IMG/VR virus record: IMGVR_UViG_3300021560_000060
Coordinates: 1-28,562 of that record
From: a virus
Lineage: Duplodnaviria; Caudoviricetes
Direction: 5' to 3' (one strand)
Length of the DNA: 28,562 bases
The notes beneath the pieces were generated by a model. It saw only the letters and a program-made list of their open reading frames with translations. It was not told where the DNA came from and did no database searches. Positions within the stretch are counted from its first letter, which is position 1, and each line of letters opens with the position of its first letter. Of this stretch, positions 8,864-28,562 are shown in pieces. The position numbers were made by a program, and so were the translations under genes.

Positions 8864-9004
8864 ATGTGGTACATCGACCGTGGCATCCTTTGCCGCCACA
8901 ACTTCTACCATGTCCCGTACAATCCACGCGCCGTTGATCATGCGCAGGAATGGGAATATGTACGCGGCTACGTGACGTGGCTGGAATATCGTCATGCCGT
9001 TTGA
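8864..9004 (+). CDS. Hypothetical protein (46 aa)
   Basis: Fills gap to terL; start uncertain. Confidence 0.4.
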   Translation: MWYIDRGILCRHNFYHVPYNPRAVDHAQEWEYVRGYVTWLEYRHAV

Positions 9005-10289
9005 TGCACCACCACAGATCAACGTCGGCATACCGGAAGCCTTCCTGCCGCTGTTCTGGAAAAGCTTTCCCGACGGTTCGCCGCTGCGGTACAAATGCTT
9101 CTACGGTGGCCGGTCATCCGGCAAGTCAACCAACCTCGCACGTGCACTGGTCGCCGAAGCGTACACCGAACCGCATTTAGTACTGTGCACGCGCGAATAT
9201 CAGAATACCATCGCCGATAGTGTGTACCGCGTATTGCAGAAGGCGATAAGCGATTTACAGATTACGCCGTACTTCATCTTCCTTGACGCCTCGATCACAT
9301 GCCGGCTCACCGGCAGTCAATTCATCTTCAAGGGATTACGCCGTGACATCCAGGGCATCCGCTCGCTTGAAGGCGTGACACGCTGTTGGATCGAAGAGGC
9401 GCATTGGCTGACACAGGATAGTTGGCTCATTCTCGATCCGACCATCCGTACCGCTGGCAGTCAGATTTTCGTCTCGTACAATCCGGTGAACGACGGCGAT
9501 CCGACGCATCGCATGTTTGCGTTGAAGACGCCGGAGCAAGCCAAGGCCATGGGCGCGTACGTCGCCAAGGTCGGTTGGCAGGATAATCCGTTCATCACGC
9601 CGGATATGGAACGCCTGCGCCTCAACATGATGCTGTCTGATCCCGACAATTACGATTGGGTGTGGGAAGGCCACACACGCAAGATATCCAACGCCACCAT
9701 CTTCAAGGATAAGGTTGAGATACTCGATTTCGACGTACCGAAGTGGCCGCTCATTGATCGCTTTTACTTCGGCCTCGATTGGGGCTTCGCCAACGATCCG
9801 CTCGCCGCCATCCGCTGTTGGATATTGGATAACTGTCTGTACGTTGACCACGAATTTTTTGGCATCAACGTGGAGATTGATCAGGTCCGCGCGGCGCTGT
9901 ACGGTGAAGACGGCTTCCACGGCATCCCCGGCGCCGAAGAGGGATTTTGGAAAGCCGACAATGCACGGCCGGAGTGCATAAGCTTTGTTGCACGCCAAGG
10001 CGTCAACATGAGCGCAGCCGAGAAGTGGCCGGGATCAGTTGAGGACGGCATACTGCATTTGAAGGCGTTCAAGAAGATTTACATTCATCCGCGCTGTACC
10101 AACATGGTGCAGGAGTCGCGGCTCTATTCGTACAAAACCGATGACAAGGTGCTGGATGCTAACGGCAACCCGTTGGTGCTGGCCAAGGTGGAAGACAAGC
10201 ACAATCACGGCTTTGACGCACTTCGCTATGCGCTTGACGGATATATACAAAAGCGTGGCGGGCTTGCGCAGTGGGAAGCCTTGGCATAG
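8994..10289 (+). CDS. terL: Terminase large subunit, PBSX/Terminase_3 type
   Basis: Walker A YGGRSSGKS, Walker B CWIEEA, YNP coupling motif, nuclease GLDWGF..DP, ADNARPE, HGFDALRYA. Confidence 0.97.
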   Translation: MPFDAPPQINVGIPEAFLPLFWKSFPDGSPLRYKCFYGGRSSGKSTNLARALVAEAYTEPHLVLCTREYQNTIADSVYRVLQKAISDLQITPYFIFLDASITCRLTGSQFIFKGLRRDIQGIRSLEGVTRCWIEEAHWLTQDSWLILDPTIRTAGSQIFVSYNPVNDGDPTHRMFALKTPEQAKAMGAYVAKVGWQDNPFITPDMERLRLNMMLSDPDNYDWVWEGHTRKISNATIFKDKVEILDFDVPKWPLIDRFYFGLDWGFANDPLAAIRCWILDNCLYVDHEFFGINVEIDQVRAALYGEDGFHGIPGAEEGFWKADNARPECISFVARQGVNMSAAEKWPGSVEDGILHLKAFKKIYIHPRCTNMVQESRLYSYKTDDKVLDANGNPLVLAKVEDKHNHGFDALRYALDGYIQKRGGLAQWEALA

Positions 10290-14034: not shown

Positions 14035-14655
14035 ATGAGTGACACGTTGGGCAATGGCGGCGGCGATGCAACAAATGCCGGTACGTCCGATGTCTCGGGC
14101 GGATTCGGTGGTGGGATCGGTAATGCCGCCGCATCTGGCTCTGGCCAGTCAGGTACCGTCGGCAACGGTGACGTATCCGGTGGTGGAACTGGGACCGGGG
14201 GCGGTGGCGGTGCCGCCGGAAGCACTGGTACAGGTCTTGCAACTACAGCAACCGACGTTGCAGTTCTTGGTGGTGCGGTACTTACGACTGGTGGGATCGT
14301 GATGGTCGGCGGTCCAACAGCCGGTGTTGCAGTCACGCTTGCCGGTACAGCACTGACGTTTGGATCAACTGAGGCGGTGCAGACGGCATTTGAACATGCC
14401 GCAACCGATATCTCCAACTCATTCGGCGCCACGGCAGCCAATCCAAATGCGGTTGGCTTGGGCATATTCGAGACATCGGCACAAGGTGTACTGGATGCAA
14501 CCAGTTATGGTGCAGATGGTACTGCGATCATCGGTTCGCTGCCAAACGGCGGCGGTCAGATTTGGGCGTTGTCCGGCAACGGTAATATCGGCATTACAAG
14601 CGGCAACGGCTTCGGACCACTTGGTACGGATGCGTTCAACGCCAGCATGGTTTAA
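14035..14655 (+). CDS. Gly-rich protein with central hydrophobic hairpin
   Basis: AAGGAA RBS; 206 aa, no Lys/Arg/Cys; VAVLGGAVLTTGGIVMVGGPTAGVAVTLAGTALTFG. Confidence 0.8.
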   Translation: MSDTLGNGGGDATNAGTSDVSGGFGGGIGNAAASGSGQSGTVGNGDVSGGGTGTGGGGGAAGSTGTGLATTATDVAVLGGAVLTTGGIVMVGGPTAGVAVTLAGTALTFGSTEAVQTAFEHAATDISNSFGATAANPNAVGLGIFETSAQGVLDATSYGADGTAIIGSLPNGGGQIWALSGNGNIGITSGNGFGPLGTDAFNASMV

Positions 14656-16111: not shown

Positions 16112-16159
16112 ACGGCGGTGGGCCGCCACGCGCGGTCCTTTCCTTCAAGGTGTACAATC

Positions 16160-18265
16160 ATGAGCGGCACAGTGAAGCCACGGATCACCGTGAGCGGCAA
16201 TACGATCACACGTGTCAACACGGGTGATAACTTTCAAAACTTCTATGCCAACGTCGGATTTGGTACACTCAATCCGATGTCCGGCAGCACGTACGGCTTC
16301 AATCCGTTAAGCCGCAATCGTACGCTGTTGGAGTGGATGTACCGCGGCTCATGGCTGGTGCGCAAGGTCATTGACTGCCCGGCCGAGGATATGACCCGCG
16401 AAGGCGTCAACATCGAATCCGACATGGAGCCGGATGCGATCGACGCGCTGACGCAGTACTGGACCAACCTACAGATTTGGGAGCGCATATCCGATACGTT
16501 GAAGTGGTCGCGGCTGTACGGCGGCTGCCTCGCGGTCATCATGATCGACGGGCAACGCATGGAGGACCCGCTGCGCATCGGCACGGTGAGTACGAATCAG
16601 TTTCAAGGCTTGCTGGTGCTTGATCGCTGGCAGGTCTATCCGCATGTTGAATCGCTGGTGAAAACCTTTGGCGCCGACTTCGGCTTGCCGGAGTACTATG
16701 AGGTTGTCGCCGACGCGCGCTCGGTACCGCGCATGAAGATACATCACTCGCGCTGCATCCGGTTTGACGGCATACGTCTGCCGTACTGGCAGAAGATGGC
16801 GGAAAACGAGTGGGGCCTGTCGGTCATCGAACCGATGTGGGATCGGATGATCGCATTTGACAGTGCAACATCGGGTGCCGCGCAGCTTGTGTACAAAGCC
16901 CATCTGCGAGTACTGAAGTTGCAGCAATTCCGACAGATCATGGCGCAGTCCGGTGGTCCGGCATTTCAGGGCCTTGCGAATATGATCAAAACCATTCGTG
17001 CGATGCAGACCAATGAGGGACTGACCTGCATCGACGCCGACGATGATTTCGTGGTCAACCAGTACGCATTCAGCGGATTGAGCGATATGCTCATTCAGTT
17101 TGCGCAGCAAGTGTCGGGCGCGGCTGATGTACCGATGACGCGCATGTTTTCGCAATCGCCGGCCGGCATGAATGCGACCGGTGAAAGCGATCTGCGCAAT
17201 TACTATGACGGCATTAAGAGCGCACAGGAGACACGGCTGCGGCGCATCCTGAAAGTGCTGTTTGATCTGACGCATCGCTCGCTGTTCGGCAAGCCACTGC
17301 CGAACGGTTTCAACTTCACCTTCAAGCCGCTATGGCAGTTGACCGAGGAAAGCAAGGCACAGATCGCCACGCAGATCGCCACGGCGGTTGAAGGTCTATT
17401 CCAGACCGGTATCTTCACGCCGGCCATGGCGTTGAAGGAAATCCGTCAGTACAGCCGCATCACCGGCTTTGGTTCCAACATCACCGATGAAGACATTGAG
17501 CACGCCGAACAGGCGCCGCCACCGATGCCCGGCATGGAAGGCGGGGAGGGTGCCGGCGGCATGCCCGGTGGAGGATCACCACTGCCCGGATCAGCCGGGC
17601 CGGACGTGGCGCCGCCCACGGTGCCGCGCGAGCCGGTGCCCGATCAGCTACCCGCCGACGACACGCCGAAGCGGGCGCTGCGACTGCTGGCCGGCGGCAA
17701 GGGCGCCATCGGCCATGCGGTCGGCGGTGCCGAACAGGATGACGCGGCAATGGGGCGTGCGCGCTCGCTGATCCCGGGCGAAGATATCACGACGGCGCAT
17801 GTCAACCTGCACACCGGTACCGCCAACCTACCCGGTGGCGTACGCGTCAACTTCCTCGATCAGCAGCGCAGCATTATCGACGTGGGAGGCTTGCAATGCG
17901 TGGTCGAAACCGAAAAAGGCCAGAAGCGTACCGGCTATGGCTGGGCCGTCAACATGCCGTGCCATTATGGCTACATCCGCGGTACATCGTCCATGGAAGG
18001 TCCGCAAGAGCAATTCGACTGCTATATCGGCGATGATTTGGAATCCGACAACGTGTGGGTCATTGATCAGCTCGTCCGTGGTACAGACAAGGTGGATGAA
18101 CAGAAGGCCATGCTCGGCTTCTCGTCGCGCGATGAAGCCGTTGCTGCGTACAAAGCCAGCTTCAATGACTTCGGCGAAGATCGCATCGGCACGATACGCA
18201 AAATGTCGGTCGGTACATTGAAGCGGTACCTTGAAGGCTGGCAGTATGGCCGGAAGCAGGCGTGA
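16160..18265 (+). CDS. Portal protein (DUF1073 type) fused to C-terminal inorganic-pyrophosphatase-like domain
   Basis: MYRGSWLVRKVIDCPAEDMTRE, WSRLYGG, IHHSR, WGLSV, FSGL, ADVPMTRMFSQSPAGMNATGESDLRNYYD, FKPLW; Pro/Gly linker; from ~17882 VVETEKG..R...M..HYGYIRGT...D.YIG...IDQ...DEQKAMLGF. Confidence 0.9.
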   Translation: MSGTVKPRITVSGNTITRVNTGDNFQNFYANVGFGTLNPMSGSTYGFNPLSRNRTLLEWMYRGSWLVRKVIDCPAEDMTREGVNIESDMEPDAIDALTQYWTNLQIWERISDTLKWSRLYGGCLAVIMIDGQRMEDPLRIGTVSTNQFQGLLVLDRWQVYPHVESLVKTFGADFGLPEYYEVVADARSVPRMKIHHSRCIRFDGIRLPYWQKMAENEWGLSVIEPMWDRMIAFDSATSGAAQLVYKAHLRVLKLQQFRQIMAQSGGPAFQGLANMIKTIRAMQTNEGLTCIDADDDFVVNQYAFSGLSDMLIQFAQQVSGAADVPMTRMFSQSPAGMNATGESDLRNYYDGIKSAQETRLRRILKVLFDLTHRSLFGKPLPNGFNFTFKPLWQLTEESKAQIATQIATAVEGLFQTGIFTPAMALKEIRQYSRITGFGSNITDEDIEHAEQAPPPMPGMEGGEGAGGMPGGGSPLPGSAGPDVAPPTVPREPVPDQLPADDTPKRALRLLAGGKGAIGHAVGGAEQDDAAMGRARSLIPGEDITTAHVNLHTGTANLPGGVRVNFLDQQRSIIDVGGLQCVVETEKGQKRTGYGWAVNMPCHYGYIRGTSSMEGPQEQFDCYIGDDLESDNVWVIDQLVRGTDKVDEQKAMLGFSSRDEAVAAYKASFNDFGEDRIGTIRKMSVGTLKRYLEGWQYGRKQA

Positions 18266-18668
18266 GGCGTATAATCTATGCGCTGTACCTGTGTCAGACG
18301 ACGAAGATCAACTGCCGCAGAGTATTATCGCTCACGTTTGGGAGACAATGGGAATGGTTGTCGAGAATCCGACCGAGGCCACGCAAGCCCGGTTCAATGA
18401 CCTGATGACGTATATCCAGCATGTACATCCAAGAGTGTTCGATCTGATCAGTCGGATTAGCGTGTACGGTGTTAAGTCATCGGAATTTCAGGTTGCCCTA
18501 CTGGAAACCCATGTTGCCGCGCTCAACCTGATCCTAGCTGCGGCGAAACTCAGAATCGGTGCAATGCGACGTATTGAAGATTTGGAGGTTGGTCTGTCCA
18601 CCGTGGAAGGCCGGGTTGATCAGTTGGAGGTACAGGCGCACGAGATTGAGCGTCTGCGGCAGGCTTAA
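18246..18668 (+). CDS. Hypothetical protein, C-terminal coiled coil
   Basis: Fills gap after portal; start uncertain. Confidence 0.6.
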   Translation: MAGSRREAYNLCAVPVSDDEDQLPQSIIAHVWETMGMVVENPTEATQARFNDLMTYIQHVHPRVFDLISRISVYGVKSSEFQVALLETHVAALNLILAAAKLRIGAMRRIEDLEVGLSTVEGRVDQLEVQAHEIERLRQA

Positions 18669-18690
18669 ACAATAAAACCGGAGAGAAGTC

Positions 18691-19035
18691 ATGATATCGC
18701 CGCTGCTGACTGAGCTACTGTTGATCATGGATAACATCCAGAACGTCAACCCGGTGATCGAAGACGCTGACGTATGGTGCCGTGAGCATGTGCCACCGTT
18801 CAAGTACTGGGCTGTGCAAATCGAGTTTGGTCAGTTTGAAGCCAAGTCTGACATTCAGGCCAAGCTCAACACAATGTTTGGCCGGTTGCGTGCAGCGCGC
18901 GAGACCGGCTTGGACGGCGCCGCAGTCGGATCAGCCACTTACCGTACTGCGCCGTACGAAGATGCTGACGGTCGCGTGCACGTAGTGTTCTATGCCAACC
19001 TGTTGGGCGGCGCGCAGGCGCTAAGGATGCAGTGA
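18691..19035 (+). CDS. Hypothetical protein
   Basis: GGAGAG RBS. Confidence 0.7.
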   Translation: MISPLLTELLLIMDNIQNVNPVIEDADVWCREHVPPFKYWAVQIEFGQFEAKSDIQAKLNTMFGRLRAARETGLDGAAVGSATYRTAPYEDADGRVHVVFYANLLGGAQALRMQ

Positions 19036-19271
19036 TGCCAGAAGTCATTGAAGAATTGCGCGATGATCCGTACCAACTGTTGGAGGACTTGCGCAACATG
19101 GGCTGGTTTGTCGGCGTGCACAATGACTATAAGCTCAACGGTGTACGCTACACGTTCTGGATGCTGACGCGTCCCTCTGACAACACATTCATCAAAGGTG
19201 AGGGTACAACCGATTACGAAGCCTTGCAGCAATGCTTGGTTGAGCATCGCAAGCTTGGGGGTTTCTGGTAA
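19035..19271 (+). CDS. Hypothetical phage protein
   Basis: TGATG coupling; GWFVGVHNDY...TFWMLT...KGEG.TD.EAL. Confidence 0.7.
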   Translation: MPEVIEELRDDPYQLLEDLRNMGWFVGVHNDYKLNGVRYTFWMLTRPSDNTFIKGEGTTDYEALQQCLVEHRKLGGFW

Positions 19272-19489
19272 TGGCACATCCGCGTGATCCCGGCTATCTG
19301 GTGATCATCAAATGGAAGGATACCGACGGCAACGCCTGCGACTGGCGCTATTTCATGAGGAAGGAAGACGTGATCGACGATGACGATGCCATGCTACAGG
19401 CTCGCGCGCGCTTCGACGCGGAGTCGGCGAACGTCTGTCGTGAAGTCAACGATACGCAATGCGTTGAAACGGGAATATTTGAGGGATGA
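19271..19489 (+). CDS. Small acidic hypothetical protein
   Basis: TAATG coupling. Confidence 0.65.
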   Translation: MAHPRDPGYLVIIKWKDTDGNACDWRYFMRKEDVIDDDDAMLQARARFDAESANVCREVNDTQCVETGIFEG

Positions 19490-19683
19490 TCTTTGCGGTC
19501 TGGTTGATGGCTGCGATCAACCTTGCACCGGCTTACTATCCGCCGTGTACGCCAGTGCGCACCGATAGCTGTACCGAGGCGCCGCCGCAGACACAGTGGC
19601 CGACATTGTACATTCCCTGTCCGCCTGACACGTACTGCCCGCCGCACGATATCCCGCATAGCGGCAAGCAGCAGCGTCAGTGA
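19486..19683 (+). CDS. Pro/Cys-rich protein with hydrophobic N-terminus
   Basis: ATGA overlap; MIFAVWLMAAINLAPAYYPPC... Confidence 0.55.
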   Translation: MIFAVWLMAAINLAPAYYPPCTPVRTDSCTEAPPQTQWPTLYIPCPPDTYCPPHDIPHSGKQQRQ

Positions 19684-19919
19684 AACCAGTTCAGCTAGGC
19701 GTTTACAACAGGACGCTAAGAAAGCACGGAGTCAAATTCTGCCGTGGCTGCGGTGAGATAAAGCCGCTGAGCGACTTCGGCAACGTCATAAAGACGAATA
19801 GCAAAGGCGGCAAGTACTTCACGCGGTATTACCGGTGCCGGACCTGCGTCACCGCGATCAGCCCGTTGATGGTTGTACAACGTAGGAAACGCCTTGCTCG
19901 CAGCAGGGAAAATGTTTGA
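19680..19919 (+). CDS. Basic Zn-finger protein
   Basis: KFCRGCGEIKPLSDF...CRTC, like the N-terminal Zn finger of EndoVII/HNH phage nucleases but with no nuclease domain. Confidence 0.7.
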   Translation: MKPVQLGVYNRTLRKHGVKFCRGCGEIKPLSDFGNVIKTNSKGGKYFTRYYRCRTCVTAISPLMVVQRRKRLARSRENV

Positions 19920-19992
19920 AGCGATCACCAGCATCGTGGCGCTTGCCTTGCTGCTGATCGCTGGCTGTTTAGCCGTCTGGTGGCATCTCTAA
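19912..19992 (+). CDS. Single-TM peptide (26 aa)
   Basis: MFEAITSIVALALLLIAGCLAVWWHL; AGGGA upstream. Confidence 0.45.
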   Translation: MFEAITSIVALALLLIAGCLAVWWHL

Positions 19993-20059
19993 AAATTCAC
20001 GCATTGCACGAGCGTCATCGTGCATCATCGCATGGTTGGTAAACAAAGGAGTCAGGGCC

Positions 20060-20587
20060 ATGGCTCTTGAACTTCGCCATCAACGCCTGCCCGACAATAC
20101 CATACAGATCATGTTTGGCGGCAGCATTGATCTGAACCTTGGTTTACGTTGGCCGCCACCGCGACGCGAAATCGTGCCGTTGCTGACGGCACGATACCAA
20201 GGCTTCACTGTAACCGCGAGAGGACATCACATGGCGTACACGCTTCCCGATGACCATATGGTTGATGTGCAGGTGGTTTGGGCCGATGCACATGGTCATC
20301 CTGCACAGGTACAGGGCGATACCACATGGGCATCGTCCGACGAGAGTATTGTCACGGTCGCTGCGGATAGCGGCGATTCAACCATGTGTGCGATCAGCCC
20401 GTCCGCGTCGGCCAATCTCGGTACTGCACAGGTCACCGCGACCGCTGATGCCGATCTGGGCGACGGCGTAACCGCAGTGGTGGCGACGTTTGATGTCACC
20501 ACGGTTGCCGGTACTGCGGTGGCCGGCACAATCTCGCCGACCGGTGATGCGCAGCCGATTGCGCCGACACCGACGCCGACTGCCTGA
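20060..20587 (+). CDS. Ig-like (Big_2-type) domain protein
   Basis: TWASSDESIVTV...GTAQVTATA; AAGGAG before ATG 20060, second in-frame ATG 20231 with GAGAGGA. Confidence 0.75.
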   Translation: MALELRHQRLPDNTIQIMFGGSIDLNLGLRWPPPRREIVPLLTARYQGFTVTARGHHMAYTLPDDHMVDVQVVWADAHGHPAQVQGDTTWASSDESIVTVAADSGDSTMCAISPSASANLGTAQVTATADADLGDGVTAVVATFDVTTVAGTAVAGTISPTGDAQPIAPTPTPTA

Positions 20588-20614: not shown

Positions 20615-20782
20615 ATGCGAGCCGTACTGCTGTTTGCTGCGCTACTGCTGACTAGCTGTACACGGATGAAAGAACACGCCGTCTGTTATGTGTTCGGTTG
20701 GAATGCCGTCATTTATTGCTGGCCGGATGGTGCAGCACTAAAGCCGCCATTGCCGCCGACCTATGATGAACGGTATCCGTAA
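20615..20782 (+). CDS. Small lipoprotein (55 aa)
   Basis: MRAVLLFAALLLTS|C lipobox, Pro-rich tail; AGGGG upstream; below track cut-off. Confidence 0.6.
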   Translation: MRAVLLFAALLLTSCTRMKEHAVCYVFGWNAVIYCWPDGAALKPPLPPTYDERYP

Positions 20783-20792
20783 GGCATGCAAC

Positions 20793-23700
20793 ATGGTTTG
20801 GGTTGTCACCGTGAATGGCACGAGTCTGGTGCGTCCTCCCCGTCATCAGACTTTCACACGCGACCTTGCCGGGATAGCGTGTCAGTGTGATGCTTGTACC
20901 AACGATGCCCGTTGGGAAGAAAGCAAGCATCCACGGGGGCAGCCCGATAACCCTGGTCAGTTTGCTTCCGCTCCAAGTGGCGGGGCCGGTAAGCAAGCTG
21001 ATCAGGGTGACTTACCCAAGCCGCATGCAAGCTCGCCGTACCAAAAGGAATTGCATGCGATCGCCACCGGCTCGGGCAGCGCCGCAGAAAAGGTACAGCG
21101 GATCAGGAACCATCCGCAGGTCAAGGGCATGCCGTCCGGCTTCACGGCAAAATACGCCAAGGAATTGATCGGCGCATTGGGCGGTGGCGAAACCAAGCTG
21201 CCACCGAAGGAAGCCGCACCACCGCAGGAAACCAAAGCGGAAACGCCGAAGGAAGCGCCGCCTAAAGTCAAGCTGCCACCGCCATCGGGCAAGCAATCAC
21301 AGCTTGTCACCGAATACTCCAAGCTTGATCCGTCACCGGAGAGTTTGAACGGTGTTGCATTCAAGAAGTGGGATGCACCGTCATCGGAAGACAAGGATGC
21401 ATGGAACGCGCTGGCCGATGAAGACAAGGTGGATGAACCCGAGTTGCCGAAGAATGTACGCGGTGCCGGTGTGATCATCCGTGAGCCGGACGGGCGTTTC
21501 TGGCTGACCAAGCCAACCAATATGTACGGCGGCTATCTGCACACTCTGCCGAAAGGCACGATCGAAAAGGATATGTCGGCACAGGCCACGGCGATCAAAG
21601 AGGCATTTGAAGAAACCGGCCTACACGTGAAGCTGGTCGCCTACGCCGGAGACTTCAAGCGGACCACGGGCAGCGCGCGCTATTACTATGCCGAGCGCGT
21701 CGGCGGTGATCCGGCTGAGCACGGTTGGGAAAGCGAAGCCACCGTACTGGCGCCGCCGGATGAATTGTTTGAGCATTTGAATATGCCGGTGGACAAGAAG
21801 ATCGCCGCTGAGCATATGGATGCGACGCCGACCAAGCCATTGCAACTGTCCGACATGACGAAGATCGGCAAGCAGCTTGGCAGCAATCCCGGTGGCAAGT
21901 ACAAAGACAACAAAACCGGCAAGCAGTACTACGTCAAGCTGTCGAAGTCGCCTGATCACGCGAAGAATGAACTGCTGGCGTCCAAGCTGTACGAAATCGC
22001 GGGTGCGCCGATCCTGCATGCCCGCCAAGTCGATATGGGCAACGGCAAGATCGGCACCGCGACCGAGTGGAAGGATGTCCGGCTGATCGACGCCGACGAT
22101 CCCGAGGAACGCCGCTTTGCACAGAAGAATTTCGCCACGCATGCATGGCTGGCGAACTGGGATGCCGCCGGACTCGAGTACGACAATCAGGGCATCGTCG
22201 GCGGCAAGATGACGACGCTTGATCCTGGCGGCTCGCTGATCTTTCGTGCACAGGGCGCACCGAAGGGCGAAGCGTTCGGCAACAAGGTGACCGAATGGGA
22301 AAGCCTGCGCAGTCCTAACAATGCGCAGGCGCACACCGTGTACGGTGAAATGTCAAAGAAGCGGTTGCAGGACAGTGCATCGCGCGTAGTCAACATTCCA
22401 TCCCATGTTATCCGTGAGATGGTGATGGAGCATGGACCGGGCGATGAAGCGGCGCGCAAGGCGCTTGCCGAGAAGCTGATCAAACGCCGCGACGATATCC
22501 ACGACAAGGCATTCCCGCCGTCAAAGGAGTCGAAGGGCGGCGGTGAAACCTCATGGCTTGGCAGCAAGTTTTGGGCACCGTCGCACGATGCAGTACCGGA
22601 GAACGACGAAAACTTGCAGCGCATTGCCGAAGCGTTGGAGGAAGCCAATCAGCTATGGGAAAGCCGGATGTACTTCGGCACCGAACCGCTGAGCAATTCG
22701 CTGCTTGAAGCCCATGCGCATGATGCGCTCGGCCTCGATGATTTTGTTGAATCCAAGCATCCGCGTGATCGCGGTGGCCGCTTTGCCCGCGTGGCCGGTG
22801 CGGTTGGCGGCAAGCTGAGCGGTGCTGTACGTGGCTTCACGCATCACGACACACATATCCTGCGCAACAGCCTGCACCGCGCCAATTCGCAGCCACGCCG
22901 GCACCTTGGATATCAGGTGGCGGCGATCGGCAAATCACTGCCGAAGCTCATGGCGTCGCATCTGCGCGAGGAAAAAGAGCACGCTGTACATGCGGCCGGC
23001 GCATTGCGCGCTATGGTCAACCGGGTACCGATGACGCCGGAGCAGAAGAAGGGCTTGCAGTCCTTCGGTGTGCGCTTGCTCATGACCGCCGGATCAATGG
23101 CGGCCTTCGGCGAGCCGACCGGCACCGTCGCACACCTTGCGGAGTCCATCGCGCACGAGATCACCCAGCACGTGATCGGCGAGCATGCCATCCAATTGGG
23201 TGCTGCGGCGGCGCGTGTCGGCGGGGGCAGTATCTTGAACAGGATCACACGACGCGGCCAGACCGACGCGATGCCCGAGCTTGGCGATCTGTCCGAAGCC
23301 GACTACGCGCTGCTGCAAGAGTTCATCGCGCATCTGGCCAAGGCGGCGCAAGAGCGTGACATCAGCGATCAGGATTACAAGCGCATGGCGTCCGACGCGT
23401 TGCACATCGTCGGCGATGCGTGGGAGGAAAGCGAGCATCCACGTGGTCAGCCAACCAACAAAGGCCAGTTCGCCGCGCACAACGCGGAAGCCGGCGGCAA
23501 GTCATTTCTCTCTGGTCTGTTCTCCAAATTCAAATCGGCCGGTGGTTCGCTGGCCAATGTGGTGAGCGGTGGTACACCGGAATTCTATCAGCCCGATCAA
23601 ATCCAGTCGGCCTATGCAGGCTTTAAGACGCGGTACGGCTCGGAGTTGTACGGTGACGTAGTACCGAAGCTGGATGAAGGCGGCAAGTCGTCGGATCAGA

Positions 23701-24257
23701 TCAATGAAGCGTTGCGTTCACTGACACCGCGCGAGAAGGCTTTGATGGGCAAGGTGTTGGTACGCAATCAGCCGCAGATGGGGCCGCAGGTTGCGCAGGC
23801 CAGCGGCATAAGCGGTAGTGGTACATCCATACCGGTCGGCCTTACCCTGACGCACACGACATTGCCACAGCAGGTTTTTGTCTATGATGGCGGTGTGGTT
23901 GGCGGCGTCAAAGCGCCGAACCGTGATCCGGCTGGTACAACCTTGCATGAGCTTGCACATGCGATGGACGGCAAGCAGGAGCGTTTTTCCAGTGATCCTG
24001 AATTTCGTGCAGGCGTGGCATTCGGTCGGCGTGTGCTGGAGAAGCACTTTCCGCCAATCGCCTATGCGTTGAAGTACTATATTGGAGATGACAGCGAAGC
24101 CTTCGCTGAGTTGTATTCGTACAGCAAGCGAAGGGACGATCCAAACTGCCGCGCCTTCGATGGCTTCTGCGCTGATCCAAACGGTCGCAACTGCATTGAT
24201 CAGTGCTTCGCACAGGCGCTCGGCGCCATTCGCAAAATTGTGGGTACACAGCCATGA
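20793..24257 (+). CDS. Multidomain enzyme: helical repeat + NUDIX hydrolase + PI3/4-kinase/HipA-like domain + helical domain + HExxH metallopeptidase
   Basis: Nudix box PKGTIEKDMSAQATAIKEAFEETGL; kinase-like LGSNPGG, YYVK, NELLASKLY, WLANWD, DN, LDPGGSL; zincin TLHELAHAMD...FSSDPEF...SEAFAELY; three HPR tags. Start 20763-20829 uncertain. Confidence 0.85.
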   Translation: MVWVVTVNGTSLVRPPRHQTFTRDLAGIACQCDACTNDARWEESKHPRGQPDNPGQFASAPSGGAGKQADQGDLPKPHASSPYQKELHAIATGSGSAAEKVQRIRNHPQVKGMPSGFTAKYAKELIGALGGGETKLPPKEAAPPQETKAETPKEAPPKVKLPPPSGKQSQLVTEYSKLDPSPESLNGVAFKKWDAPSSEDKDAWNALADEDKVDEPELPKNVRGAGVIIREPDGRFWLTKPTNMYGGYLHTLPKGTIEKDMSAQATAIKEAFEETGLHVKLVAYAGDFKRTTGSARYYYAERVGGDPAEHGWESEATVLAPPDELFEHLNMPVDKKIAAEHMDATPTKPLQLSDMTKIGKQLGSNPGGKYKDNKTGKQYYVKLSKSPDHAKNELLASKLYEIAGAPILHARQVDMGNGKIGTATEWKDVRLIDADDPEERRFAQKNFATHAWLANWDAAGLEYDNQGIVGGKMTTLDPGGSLIFRAQGAPKGEAFGNKVTEWESLRSPNNAQAHTVYGEMSKKRLQDSASRVVNIPSHVIREMVMEHGPGDEAARKALAEKLIKRRDDIHDKAFPPSKESKGGGETSWLGSKFWAPSHDAVPENDENLQRIAEALEEANQLWESRMYFGTEPLSNSLLEAHAHDALGLDDFVESKHPRDRGGRFARVAGAVGGKLSGAVRGFTHHDTHILRNSLHRANSQPRRHLGYQVAAIGKSLPKLMASHLREEKEHAVHAAGALRAMVNRVPMTPEQKKGLQSFGVRLLMTAGSMAAFGEPTGTVAHLAESIAHEITQHVIGEHAIQLGAAAARVGGGSILNRITRRGQTDAMPELGDLSEADYALLQEFIAHLAKAAQERDISDQDYKRMASDALHIVGDAWEESEHPRGQPTNKGQFAAHNAEAGGKSFLSGLFSKFKSAGGSLANVVSGGTPEFYQPDQIQSAYAGFKTRYGSELYGDVVPKLDEGGKSSDQINEALRSLTPREKALMGKVLVRNQPQMGPQVAQASGISGSGTSIPVGLTLTHTTLPQQVFVYDGGVVGGVKAPNRDPAGTTLHELAHAMDGKQERFSSDPEFRAGVAFGRRVLEKHFPPIAYALKYYIGDDSEAFAELYSYSKRRDDPNCRAFDGFCADPNGRNCIDQCFAQALGAIRKIVGTQP

Positions 24258-25375
24258 TGAATCGGTTGGTTGTCATGCCGAGCGGTGAGATATCGGTGCA
24301 GCAGATCACCGAAGGCGGCAGAGTGTACGGACTTGGGCCGGTGCCGGAGTTTCAGCACATGCAGCCCGGTCTGTACGACGAAGATATGCAGTTGATCACG
24401 CATGAGGACGTGCCGCCGGAGTTGATGAAGCACACGTACGACGCCTTTGTTGAAGGTGAGCATCCACGCGGCCAGCCGGAGAATAAGGGGCAGTTTACCT
24501 CGAAATCCGGTGGGCACGTCGCAGCCACGGCGGGGCGGGGCAAAACGTCGGCGACGGCGCATATGCAACCGGCGCATCATGATCGCACACAGTGGCCGAC
24601 GCATATTCAGAAGCTCCGTGTACCGCCGGCATGGCAGAATGTGCAGTACAGCCACAATGCCGAGGCACCGCTACAGGTTGTTGGTTACGACACAAAGGGC
24701 CGCAAGCAGTACATATACCATCAGAATTTTGCAACGCAGCAAGCACAGGTGAAGTACGCCCGTATTCGCGAGCTAGAGGATAAGTTTGATTCCATCCTTG
24801 CGCAGAACCGGGAAAACCAGCAGAGTAGCGATCCGCGGGTGCGCGAGCATGCCGATGCGGCAGCTTTGATTATGGCCATGGGCGTGCGGCCCGGCTCGGA
24901 AGCCGATACCCAAGCGGAAACCAAAGCCTACGGTGCGACAACCCTGCTAGGGCGCCATGTGGTGCCGCTGGTCAAAGGGACGCGGCTGCGCTTCACCGGC
25001 AAGAAGGGTGTGCCGTTGGACCTGCCGGTGGATGACCCGGAGATCAGCAAGATGCTGATCAGCCGTGCGAGCAAGTCTGGCCGGACGGGGCAGCTATTCC
25101 CGAGCGTGTCATCGCACTCCATGCTGGATTACATCCACTCATTCGACGGCGGCGGCTTCAAGAGCAAGGACATGCGTACACACCTTGCGGCGAAAACCGC
25201 GCAATCCATGATGCGCGATATGACGGCGCCAACATCGGCGACACAGTACAAAAAGTCTGTACGCGAAGTGGCGAAGGCGGTATCGGAAAAGCTCGGCAAC
25301 ACGCCGGCCATTGCGCTGCAATCGTACATTCCGCCATCCACCTTCGCCGAATGGCGTTCAACGTCGGGAGTGTGA
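24254..25375 (+). CDS. DNA topoisomerase IB (bacterial/poxvirus-like) with N-terminal HPR tag
   Basis: ATGA overlap; VPPAW, GYDTKGRKQYIYH, catalytic set GVRPG (R), FTGKKG (K), KDMRT (R), LGNTP (N), SYI (Y). Confidence 0.93.
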   Translation: MMNRLVVMPSGEISVQQITEGGRVYGLGPVPEFQHMQPGLYDEDMQLITHEDVPPELMKHTYDAFVEGEHPRGQPENKGQFTSKSGGHVAATAGRGKTSATAHMQPAHHDRTQWPTHIQKLRVPPAWQNVQYSHNAEAPLQVVGYDTKGRKQYIYHQNFATQQAQVKYARIRELEDKFDSILAQNRENQQSSDPRVREHADAAALIMAMGVRPGSEADTQAETKAYGATTLLGRHVVPLVKGTRLRFTGKKGVPLDLPVDDPEISKMLISRASKSGRTGQLFPSVSSHSMLDYIHSFDGGGFKSKDMRTHLAAKTAQSMMRDMTAPTSATQYKKSVREVAKAVSEKLGNTPAIALQSYIPPSTFAEWRSTSGV

Positions 25376-25378
25376 TCA

Positions 25379-25609
25379 ATGGCGCTTCCTGTTTATCTCC
25401 CCGATGTACACTTCGGCGGACCACGCCAGACGCCGATCGACTGGCGCAGCAATACCAACCCCGACGACGATCGCGATGACGACGACGAGTTGATGTACAC
25501 GCCGCCGCATGTCACGTTGATGTTGGGTTTTGATCCAAAAGATATCGACGTGGACGATCCCGAAAGCTCAAGCTTCGGCATCGGCAACCCGCTGCACGAT
25601 CGTCGGTAG
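25379..25609 (+). CDS. Small Asp-rich protein
   Basis: DWR...DDDRDDDDELMYTPPHVTLMLGFDP; GGGAG upstream. Confidence 0.7.
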   Translation: MALPVYLPDVHFGGPRQTPIDWRSNTNPDDDRDDDDELMYTPPHVTLMLGFDPKDIDVDDPESSSFGIGNPLHDRR

Positions 25610-25739
25610 GAATTAGGCTACGCATCCTGCATTCCACGTAGCCTGATCCCGAGGGTCGCCGGGGGTTTTTGCGGCCGACTTCTCGCCGGAAACTGGTACG
25701 ACCGGTTTTAGTTTCCTCCGGTGCGTACACAGAAACTCA
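25609..25739 (+). ncRNA. Candidate structured RNA/attenuator
   Basis: Three consecutive stems with G-U pairs on the + strand preceding a terminator. Confidence 0.4.
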
Positions 25740-25775
25740 CCCTTGGCGTATCCGACAGTACGCCAAGGGCTTTTT
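25740..25775 (+). terminator. Intrinsic terminator about 20 nt before the last gene
   Basis: cccttggcgta (25740-25750)/tacgccaaggg (25759-25769) then CTTTTT. Confidence 0.75.
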
Positions 25776-25794
25776 CCTCCCAAAAGGTACGGCG

Positions 25795-28562
25795 ATGTTC
25801 ACAATCGACATCCGTTATGTTGATTCGGACTTCAAAGAGTCTGATCATCCGCGCGGACAGCCCGGCAATGCCGGTCAGTTTGTCAAGTCGGGTGAGGGTG
25901 TGCAATCGACCAAGGGAAAGAAGGTCGCGATCCCCAAGGCGGAACTGCCGAAGCAGTTGAACCCGAAATACTTCGCCAAGCCGAATGCGATGATCAACGC
26001 AGCGGTCAGCGGCAATTACAGCGCGTCCGAAGCGGCGGCGAAAATCAAGGAGATCACCAGCAAGTACAAGCACAACATGGTGGCGCACTATGCGACACAG
26101 GTGTTGCAGAAGCTTGCCGCCACAACCGGACGCTCAACGAGCCATTATGGCGCGGCCGAAGTGCATCCCGGATCAAGCAAGGCGAAGGCTGCACCACCGA
26201 AGCCAGTGACAACCTCGTACACCGCGCAGCATGGTCAGCAGGCGAGTACAAAGGGCGAGTTGCCAGCAAGCGCGTGGGTCGAATCAACTGGTGGTCAGGG
26301 CAAGCAGGTATCCGAGGAATCGGAAAAGGCGTACAAGTCGTGGAAGGACTTGCGCAAGGAACATGGACCGAATGATCCCAAGGCGATCAAAGCACTGACC
26401 GATTGGCTGCACACGCCGACCACGTTGGTCAAGGGCATCACCGGGTACTGGGCGAGTCATACCGACGAATTCACCAAGCAGGAAGTGAAGACGTTGCTGG
26501 ATTTGATCCCATCCAGCAAGTCGCAGACCAAAGAAGCGCAAAGCCTGTACCAAGCGTACAAGCAGATGAAGGAAGACGGCGGTCAGAAGGTACTGCCGGA
26601 AGACAAGCCAGAGCCGGCACCGAAGTTTGGTCCGCATACCGAGGCGCTGGAAAAAGCGCAGGCAATGGCGAACATGCCGGAAGCCTATTCCTATCAGCAG
26701 ATGAAAGAGCATTGGGAGAACATCGGCCATCTGCCGTTTAACGATCTGCCGCAAGGCTCGCAGCAGGCGATGTACGACATTTACAACGCGCTCGGCGAAG
26801 CGGTGATAACCAAGTCCAAAGAGCCGTCGCCCGAGCAAAACAAGGCGGCGCAGGACAATCAGATTTGGGAGCACGCCAAGTCGATCTTCAACAAAGGCTG
26901 GTCGAAGGACCAGAAGATCAACGCGCTGCGCGGTTTGCTGGATAATCCCAATCTCTCACCGGAGACGCGCGAAGCGATCAAGGGTCTGATCGCCGAGTTG
27001 CAGGGCAAGAAGCCGGAACCCGAAAAAGCAGCGGGCGATATCCCGAAGTCGCCGGGGCTGACCAATCTGCAAAACAAGCTGTACACGATTGCGTCTGATC
27101 CGAATACCGATATCGGCGTGAAGATACAGGAGATCGAGAACACGCCGACCGCAGCGCAGTCTTCCGCCGAGTACAAGCAAAATGTGTTGAAGGCGTTGAA
27201 AGCGCAGCAGAAGGCGCAGGAAGCACCGGGCGCCGACAAGCCCGAGCCGAAATGGGACTTCAAGGCTCACAGCGCGACCGAGAATAATCACGCGTCATGG
27301 ATGGAGATTTACGCCAAGGACCCGAGTTGGAGCCACGATCAGAAGATTTCCCATATCAACACTGAGTACAATGACGCGGTGCAGAGCGGCCACGGTACAA
27401 CCACGCTCGGCGAGTACAAAAATCAGTGGATCAACTATCTGAAATTGGTCGGTCATCCGAAGCCGATGGAGACTCCTTCGGCAAAAACTGTACAGGCTGC
27501 GAAGGAGTTCTTGCAGTCAGAGTTGAATCCAAAGGCCAAGATTTCTGCACTGACCGGCTTGCAGAATCAGGTGGACGATCCAAGCTCCAAAGCCGCCATC
27601 CAGACGATGATTGATCAGGTGCAGAGCGGTATTGAGAAGCCCAAGGTCAGCGCGCCGACATCATCGGCTGAACTGCCGAAAAGCGACGGCTCCAATTCGC
27701 ACGAGGCCATGCTGGCGATCGCGTTGAACAAGAGTACCAGCAAAGAGGAAAAGCTGCGCGAGTTGCAGTCGATGCATGATAAGCTGGCGACGCCGAAGAA
27801 TAAGGTGTACGCGCAAAAGCTGATTGACGCATTGAACGCCGAGGCGCCGGCCGAGCCGGAAGCAGCGGCGGTACCAGCACCGAAGCCGGAGGACCCGTAC
27901 GAGTCCACGTTGTTGGTTGGCGAACCTGATCTGCCGGAGCCGTTCGGTGGGTCCAAGCATCAGGTCACGCTGTACAACATCGCCAAGAGCAATAAGGACA
28001 ACAGTCAGAAGATCAAAGAGATTGCCACCTATCCCACGGTGAAGGATTACCCGAACGACTACACCGCGAAATACGCGAAGTCATTGATTACAGCGTTGGG
28101 CGGTGATCCTGATAAGGCGATCAAAAAGCCTGTGACGCCTGCGGCGTCACAGCCGAGTACGCCGTCGCCGTACGCGAAGCAGAAATCCCCGCAGACGATC
28201 AACGTGGCGCAGCCTTCGCTCAAAGCCGACAAGAAGACGTACGCATGGGCGATCGAGCTATTCGATGGCGCGGCCAAGCCATCCAGCATTCATAGCGCCG
28301 AAGCGAAGGAAATCTGCCCGTCGTTGAAGCAGGAGTTTTGGGACGGGACGCCGAAGAATCAGGTATCCGCTGTAAAGTGGTACACCGACGAAGGATCGCA
28401 ATACATCAACGCGTACCTGCGTGCGCAGGATTTGGAGAATATTTCCAAGAGTACCGTACAGAAGGCGCATCTGGTCCGCGATTGCTTCAAGCGCAAGGGT
28501 GTACCGGTAACCAAAGACGTGGTGCTGCGGCGCGGCCTCAGTGATTGGAACGAGCAAGAGAA
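25795..28562 (+). CDS. Large HPR-tagged helical-repeat protein with VIP2/C3-like ADP-ribosyltransferase domain (truncated by window)
   Basis: Not in track (no stop); MFTIDIRYVDSDFKESDHPRGQPGNAGQF...; ends AVKWYTDEGSQYINAYLR...KDVVLRRGL (YT..G...IN..LR and first-strand RG of R-S-E ARTs); catalytic STS/ExE would lie beyond the window. Confidence 0.85.
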   Translation, partial: MFTIDIRYVDSDFKESDHPRGQPGNAGQFVKSGEGVQSTKGKKVAIPKAELPKQLNPKYFAKPNAMINAAVSGNYSASEAAAKIKEITSKYKHNMVAHYATQVLQKLAATTGRSTSHYGAAEVHPGSSKAKAAPPKPVTTSYTAQHGQQASTKGELPASAWVESTGGQGKQVSEESEKAYKSWKDLRKEHGPNDPKAIKALTDWLHTPTTLVKGITGYWASHTDEFTKQEVKTLLDLIPSSKSQTKEAQSLYQAYKQMKEDGGQKVLPEDKPEPAPKFGPHTEALEKAQAMANMPEAYSYQQMKEHWENIGHLPFNDLPQGSQQAMYDIYNALGEAVITKSKEPSPEQNKAAQDNQIWEHAKSIFNKGWSKDQKINALRGLLDNPNLSPETREAIKGLIAELQGKKPEPEKAAGDIPKSPGLTNLQNKLYTIASDPNTDIGVKIQEIENTPTAAQSSAEYKQNVLKALKAQQKAQEAPGADKPEPKWDFKAHSATENNHASWMEIYAKDPSWSHDQKISHINTEYNDAVQSGHGTTTLGEYKNQWINYLKLVGHPKPMETPSAKTVQAAKEFLQSELNPKAKISALTGLQNQVDDPSSKAAIQTMIDQVQSGIEKPKVSAPTSSAELPKSDGSNSHEAMLAIALNKSTSKEEKLRELQSMHDKLATPKNKVYAQKLIDALNAEAPAEPEAAAVPAPKPEDPYESTLLVGEPDLPEPFGGSKHQVTLYNIAKSNKDNSQKIKEIATYPTVKDYPNDYTAKYAKSLITALGGDPDKAIKKPVTPAASQPSTPSPYAKQKSPQTINVAQPSLKADKKTYAWAIELFDGAAKPSSIHSAEAKEICPSLKQEFWDGTPKNQVSAVKWYTDEGSQYINAYLRAQDLENISKSTVQKAHLVRDCFKRKGVPVTKDVVLRRGLSDWNEQE

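Follow-up and report, generated by a model that had tools for sequence, protein, structure and literature searches.

Why should one short peptide recur five times downstream of the portal gene of a single tailed phage, each time ahead of a different protein module? The question is raised by the window analysed here, the whole 28,562-nucleotide stretch of IMG/VR virus record IMGVR_UViG_3300021560_000060 (Caudoviricetes), and an earlier note on its sequence had answered it with a plug-and-play tag of about 20 residues that loads diverse enzymes into the head for co-ejection with the DNA. The features concerned are listed by position in the window.

8994..10289, + strand: terminase large subunit (Pfam Terminase_3, E 3e-35, also Terminase_3C)
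14035-14655: 206-aa Gly-rich ORF upstream of the portal (no Pfam match)
16118..18265, + strand: DUF1073-type portal with C-terminal InPase (Pfam Phage_portal_3, E 5e-108; InPase, E 6e-26)
18231-20587: six small ORFs between the portal and the tagged genes (no MuF recognised)
20763..24257, + strand: 1164-aa polyprotein with three tagged modules (start possibly 20793)
20880-20897, + strand: Cys-x-Cys-x-x-Cys in the polyprotein leader, just before the predicted cut
20904..20963, + strand: tag copy 1, its first Asp the predicted protease P1 residue (tag profile, covariation)
21456..21800, + strand: NUDIX hydrolase domain of module 1 (Pfam NUDIX, E 5e-13, above cut-off)
21831..22520, + strand: conserved phage domain with kinase-like motifs (motifs, local homologues)
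22737..22784, + strand: tag copy 2, short HPRDxxGRF form
22785..23414, + strand: module 2, no assigned function (homologues in other tag-bearing proteins)
23415..23471, + strand: tag copy 3
23472..24254, + strand: module 3, zincin-like by motif only (HExxH at 23946-23960, downstream Glu motif at 24096-24110)
24251..25375, + strand: topoisomerase IB (TopoIB) with 63-aa leader (Pfam Topoisom_I, E 2e-21, and Top1B_N_bact; 361 homologues)
24440..24496, + strand: tag copy 4
25379-25609: 76-aa acidic ORF between TopoIB and the ART protein (no family match)
25795..25821, + strand: short hydrophobic leader before the predicted cut, a candidate removed loading peptide (similar leaders elsewhere)
25795..28560, + strand: helical-repeat protein with the start of a probable ART domain at its end (Pfam ADPrib_exo_Tox, E 0.0035, below cut-off)
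25822..25881, + strand: tag copy 5

The TopoIB start overlaps the stop of the upstream ORF, and the ORF from 25795, together with its ART match, is truncated by the contig end; since the contig ends inside this last tagged ORF, the record does not include the protease, MuF and capsid genes of this phage. Among sequencing runs, none of RNA was listed as carrying the sequence, and the single DNA run, which may be its source, showed no differences.

All five peptides were recovered on the + strand at the positions that the earlier note had given, far above chance: the pattern HPR.{2,6}G[QRK]F gave 5 six-frame matches in the window, whereas 300 codon shuffles averaged 0.013 and never exceeded 1, and the tag profile scored the five copies at 24-42 bits versus 5.5 bits for the next best match. 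No part of the portal ORF matched the profile. Three consecutive + strand ORFs hold the copies (three in 20763-24257, one in the TopoIB ORF and one in the ORF from 25795). In ten pairwise comparisons of their 14-codon stretches, DNA identity was 19-30 of 42 and different codons were used at 41 of 78 identical residues; because synonymous positions are scrambled to this extent, the tag is conserved as protein, with selection on the peptide, as the earlier note had held. Its description of a shared HPRGQP sequence applies to four copies, which have the GQP form, and fails for copy 2 with the shorter form. Of the proposed placement at N-termini or domain boundaries, one copy per module stands, whereas an initiator Met never directly precedes a tag in the window, the first copies lying about 10-64 residues into their ORFs.

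The modules themselves had been called unrelated, yet modules 1 and 5 share a helical repeat (21009-21221 in the polyprotein and about 27928-28140 in the ART protein; 42% identity, E 6e-12). Among the proposed enzyme labels, NUDIX and TopoIB passed the Pfam cut-off, ART fell below it, and the kinase-like and HExxH labels are by motif. The kinase-like domain has a Gly-rich loop, YVK, NE, D..N and DxG, and found 27 local matches (self and near-duplicates included), no Pfam or PDB match, and a negative result on profile comparison; we infer a kinase fold from the motifs. This phage domain usually lies near NUDIX. Module 3 gave no Pfam or meaningful PDB match despite its HExxH and downstream Glu, and the ESM Atlas returned no match at 0.9 or above, module 2 included.

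The motif is [W/F]xExxHPR(x2-6)G[R/K/Q]F followed by a Gly-rich linker; in a 58-row alignment H, P, R, G and F do not vary and E hardly varies. Relative to the shorter HPRDxxG[R/K]F form, GQP is inserted sequence, and the Gly/Ser-rich linker comes after it. A profile of the copies with a catalogue of attached domains and neighbourhoods, which the earlier note had suggested as a check, was built over 34 positions and matched 4,112 protein clusters at 50% identity, carrying diverse enzymes and mostly from head-gene modules, with up to 18 matched stretches in a single protein. Exact DNA patterns were present in at least 127 and at least 124 viral stretches (estimates ~130 and ~260) and in at least 124 stretches from prokaryotic genomes of many phyla (estimate ~230). 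Cultured carriers are PhiXhv-5, Bups phi1, FP_Brigit, GodonK and the archaeal virus HHTV-1, and their tags lie between terminase and capsid genes or predicted capsid-region genes. The tag was located in the portal tail of PhiXhv-5 (a Xanthomonas phage), in gp67 of GodonK (a Gordonia phage) and in gp13 of HHTV-1, and Streptomyces phage Gilgamesh gave only a weak tblastn match, in gp48. Searches of the five tag windows gave no NCBIfam match, the full ORFs had no Pfam family over the tag, and there was no PDB match; PHROGs gave only a weak match, in the tail of portal phrog_113, and tblastn with one short-form tag gave no matches. The literature search returned no paper naming the motif, which is a weak test since the results were partly swamped by unrelated acronyms, no kept motif common to unrelated head types in the literature on head-packaged effector systems, and no virion proteomics for a tag-bearing phage (the scope here being HHTV-1 only).

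For the counts that follow, copies scoring below 14 bits or without an aromatic-x4-H/Q-P/R-R anchor were dropped (which loses an actinophage variant), as were loci below 3 kb (162 of 250 kept), duplicates and two annotated phage loci; four genome loci in sugar-metabolism operons that match the DNA pattern without a tag hit were left out. Among loci of 10 kb or more, a head gene was found within the locus in 78 of 92 viral and 33 of 57 bacterial-genome cases. The 209 non-redundant viral copies comprise 74 in portal, protease or MuF fusions (MuF in only 8) and 135 (65%) in stand-alone proteins, with none fused to a capsid protein and only 5 followed by fewer than 60 residues. The tag lies downstream of the structural domain in 67 of 76 cases, and 10 residues or fewer from the start in 19 of 105 stand-alone genes. 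MuF as an obligate partner was rejected: a local profile, which may overlook divergent copies, recognised it in only 39 of 67 portal-bearing loci.

A Pfam scan covering 158 of 207 tag-bearing proteins identified ART, NUDIX, TopoIB, Zeta-type kinase, PBECR1-3, LPD3, LPD13, RelA/SpoT, SAM lyase, PI3/4-kinase-like, GNAT, KptA, zincin, Acb1/2H and DUF7178 domains. Some head-fused enzymes go without the tag, namely the InPase of this portal and a NUDIX before DUF2213. TopoIB homologues with room upstream (n=116) split into 88 with the tag, 21 with a related G-x-F/W leader and 7 with neither, so that the tag is the commonest of a family of leaders; as a control, the looser leader pattern matched 8 of 119 in-domain windows. 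The alternative TopoIB leaders are of Asn-Pro-Cys-His, Tyr-Asn-Pro-Tyr-His and Asp-Pro-Asp-Gln-Pro-Arg types, all ending G-x-F/W, and would be candidate members of a wider leader superfamily. We consider it very likely that the tag marks head cargo. The earlier note had named a motif common outside head modules as what would refute it, and this was found in part: head genes accompany the tag in only the 33 of 57 genome loci given above, though the largest set of orphans is found alongside a phage-like head cluster. Orphan chromosomal copies stood in genomes without a DUF1073 portal in 4 of 5 cases, DUF1073 portals being the only ones searched. Chromosomal tagged genes also occur at five loci in Desulfovibrio, one with a YD-repeat-like match and mostly with no phage genes nearby.

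The residue ahead of the tag follows head type. Taking positions -4..-2 before the aromatic as the P1 window and -10..-8 as control, Asp was present in 96 of 107 copies in DUF1073/DUF2213/DUF2184 heads versus 2 of 39 in HK97-type heads, and Lys in 6 of 107 versus 33 of 39; p-values on such counts overstate independence, because head types are lineages and the contrasts are few, not hundreds. With one copy per locus the same comparison gave Asp 50/58 versus 1/23 and Lys 3/58 versus 18/23, and, when restricted to loci with an observed protease gene, Asp 56/59 versus 2/20 and Lys 4/59 versus 17/20; the control window gave Asp 29/107 versus 6/39 and Lys 17/107 versus 9/39. Bacterial-genome loci replicated the pattern (Asp 9/15 versus 1/17, Lys 2/15 versus 10/17). 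Copies within one polyprotein shared their upstream residue in 506 of 1034 pairs (49%; the window's own protein is included) versus 19% after shuffling (maximum 23% of 500), and in the control window agreement was 17% versus 12%. Spacing between tags is domain-sized, with 381 of 421 gaps at 80-600 aa and a median of 269 aa.

Capsid-protein leaders in the same loci, compared by eye, mostly end x-x-Asp or x-Lys in agreement with head type. The related Pbunavirus capsid protein has an Ala-Met-Asp that ends at residue 64, and the E217 capsid model begins at residue 66, the preceding part being cleaved or disordered according to the available text of PMC10329688. Glu-, Phe- and Ala-type upstream residue sets also occur, and no protease was identified in the search of Glu- and Phe-type loci. 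SPP1-type heads, which to our knowledge have no maturation protease, carry the tag right after the start Met in 10 of 13 loci versus 10 of 105 other loci (native N-termini were called by Met within 7 residues and stop within 45, a rule of thumb with some false calls).

As the upstream residue follows head type, the tag likely stays on the mature module, at or near its N-terminus, and we are fairly confident that the prohead protease cuts just upstream of it. In the window's phage type the cut is predicted to fall after Asp, a specificity borrowed from relatives because the contig is without its own protease. The cut at Asp that the earlier note had proposed is thus likely, given the covariation with protease family. 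Its statement that the copies begin with Asp needs amending: Asp does precede them, but the residue at this place varies with head type, so that the leading Asp would be the cut site and lie outside the tag.

Gastranaerophilales provided a setting in which a loading peptide could be sought separately. Each genome has 1-2 chromosomal genes that start Met-x-tag and end in lysozyme-like, M23, deamidase-like or unassigned domains, and one terminase, in a podophage-like head-tail cluster, was found in 5 of 5 checked genomes versus 4 of 60 others sampled from the order (the capsid gene of the cluster was read in 4 of the 5, the fifth contig ending there). Scaffold tails bind coat protein, as in P22 and 80alpha. 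The tagged cargo also holds the C-terminal peptide of its own scaffold, typically 20-80 residues after the tag (a strict pattern matched 12 of 21, versus 1 of 134 other ORFs), and its Pro- or Gly-ending form matches the genome's own scaffold in 9 of 9 tagged genes from 5 genomes. A 52-aa cargo N-terminus comprising the tag and the scaffold-like peptide scored 0.45 against its capsid protein versus 0.00 for the best control. This is weak: 116 of 157 solved pairs reach the mark, as do 2 of 215 mismatched ones, but only 18 of the solved pairs and both mismatches do so at 0.60 or below; contact agreement between runs was at least 32% and partner pLDDT 41-44, and since no contacts are given either peptide may be responsible. 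Tag, scaffold-tail copy and variable toxin-like domain together may form a capsid-delivered polymorphic toxin system, restricted to a sub-lineage. A gene transfer agent spanning the order was rejected, since only 5 of 61 sampled genomes have the capsid gene and only 1 of these 5, the seed genome, has a strong match to the tagged cargo. Several of these tagged genes are followed by a membrane-protein gene.

Is the tag then an address for loading? On that account it would bind a prohead component and release would be passive. Short N-terminal packaging signals are used by T4 and P1 (available text of PMC9958956 and PMC9024508), most tag copies (135 of 209) sit in stand-alone proteins, those near the start (within 10 residues) in 19 of 105 such genes could themselves load, in SPP1-type heads the tag is often the sole shared N-terminal feature, and the cargo N-terminus has its weak capsid score. 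Against this, polyproteins carry one copy per module, the tag would be redundant in portal or protease fusions, a separate scaffold-tail copy is present where this could be checked (Gastranaerophilales), and the tag hardly varies between head types with portals of different families. Pure loading is doubtful because tags repeat per module, follow portal and protease fusions and coexist with the separate peptide, and we regard a loading address as rather unlikely. Of the earlier note's proposal, the protein-level tag on diverse head-module enzymes survives, and loading as its sole role does not fit the 74 of 209 copies in fusions.

Other readings account for less. In one, the tag would fold by itself or associate with other tags and so keep freed cargo in the head, in an inner body close to the portal or on DNA, so that none is lost as the head matures, and it would have no part in exit. 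This would suit the invariant H, P, R, G and F with near-invariant E and a modest compact predicted model (core pLDDT ~70), and needs no conserved phage partner; the net charge of the core, however, is -1 or lower in 143 of 207 and +1 or higher in 16, and self-association alone leaves the required N-terminal position unexplained, which makes this improbable. AT-hooks have a basic Arg-Gly-Arg-Pro core with positive flanks, which the tag resembles, and AT-hook-like DNA binding or tethering was rejected on a mean net charge of -1.2 (16 of 207 positive). In another, the tag would work in the infected cell, where a chaperone, membrane channel or protease conserved among hosts would recognise it and the ejected enzymes would thereby be refolded, routed or stabilised. 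Its presence in phages from many phyla and in an archaeal virus would agree with this, yet likely periplasmic (lysozyme-like, M23 peptidase) and cytoplasmic (ART, TopoIB) cargo share the tag, so it is no destination signal, and we rate this as highly improbable. Least credible of all is a role only as a protease docking site or as a DNA recombination junction for module swapping: the tags do lie at module boundaries and adjoin predicted cut sites, but native N-termini in SPP1-type heads, several different upstream residues, absence of the motif from capsid-protein leader ends and scrambled synonymous sites all speak against it.

In T4, gp21 removes the N-terminal peptides of internal proteins (IPs), where the capsid-targeting sequence (CTS) lies, and the tag resembles the CTS of IPII and IPIII in being a short peptide on non-structural head proteins with a prohead protease cut nearby and cargo thought to be injected (available text of PMC9958956). 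The T4 CTS is, on the same source, a lineage-specific N-terminal peptide of ~10 aa that gp21 removes, whereas the tag lies downstream of the predicted cut, is repeated internally, is common to unrelated head types and stands at a native N-terminus in a subset only. The analogy with the CTS drawn by the earlier note is therefore not supported, the conserved part being predicted to be kept here and removed in T4; by analogy, the variable upstream leader is the better CTS counterpart. In P1 the N-terminal 30 residues of DarB direct the protein into the head, and the portion of PMC9024508 available gives no shared consensus for Dar proteins, with loading shown for DarB; in the tag's system a separate loading peptide is likely.

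Tagged proteins carry the same cargo types as polyvalent proteins and are likewise fused to or beside head genes; polyvalent proteins, including portal/MuF-fused effectors, have ART, NUDIX, InPase, PBECR, 2H, RelA/SpoT and zincin domains and are predicted to be packaged and injected (PMC5512222, PMC9503650, in the text available). ORF 20763-24257 has the disparate domains of that class (NUDIX and three conserved or motif-bearing domains), and TerL and portal-InPase lie upstream of the tagged ORFs. The available text of these papers proposes processing by embedded metallopeptidases, whereas we propose the prohead protease; 'HPR' had 0 matches in the main text of PMC5512222, whose supplements, outside this scope, may bear on the motif. 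MuF polymorphic toxins are head-module toxins with variable C-termini and downstream immunity ORFs, the delivery determinant being the MuF domain, and 'motif' and 'cleav' had 0 matches in the available text of PMC5576092. Unlike these, the three tagged ORFs have no MuF domain by Pfam, in a contig that ends before any MuF gene.

If loading is likely achieved by lineage-specific peptides or by fusion, the universal tag likely acts later, and since cargo with periplasmic and with cytoplasmic targets shares it, the common step is leaving the head. On balance we think the tag probably acts after loading; that it acts specifically in ejection has slightly less than an even chance. Our preferred reading, which we hold with only marginal confidence, is that the tag is a kept N-terminal leader, cut free by the prohead protease and acting after loading in release or ejection. 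Cargo would enter the prohead fused to portal, MuF or protease, or through a lineage-specific scaffold-mimicking peptide; at three loci of DUF2213-type phages, an anecdotal set, the leader that the cut would remove shows a hydrophobic/His beta-strand pattern also seen in protease or scaffold tails. The DUF2213-type protease would then cut after Asp, just upstream of each tag, the kept tag with its Gly-rich linker would lead each freed module out with the DNA, and the ejected enzymes would act in the host early in infection. In its widest form, which we put forward tentatively, the tag may be a near-universal ejection signal of tailed phages and archaeal tailed viruses that selects the head proteins that exit with the DNA, unmasked by the virus's prohead protease or encoded at the start where there is none, separate from loading peptides, and also used by chromosomal toxin genes riding a resident phage-like particle.

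We know of no account of how head-packaged proteins are selected to leave with the DNA, the T4 and P1 studies addressing loading. Head-packaged, protease-processed effectors are already known; what is new is the covariation across families, together with the grounds for setting the tag apart from loading. With a kept cross-family tag, loading and ejection could be separated directly by mutation. The tag also shows where modules meet, and which protease specificity is likely, in thousands of uncharacterised proteins, and it can be used to mine for early-acting counter-defence enzymes (Acb1-like, SAM lyase, ART, PBECR, RelA/SpoT and unassigned domains). Should the tag indeed drive ejection, it could be put to use in delivering proteins to bacteria by means of phage.

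Two features of the window's leaders deserve mention. Stretches in the portal tail (17798-17812 and 17840-17854) are beta-strand-like and resemble the leader of the ART protein (25801-25812) as well as protease and scaffold tails, and are a candidate loading or cut-site motif. Cys motifs similar to that of the polyprotein leader occur in other DUF2213-type leaders.
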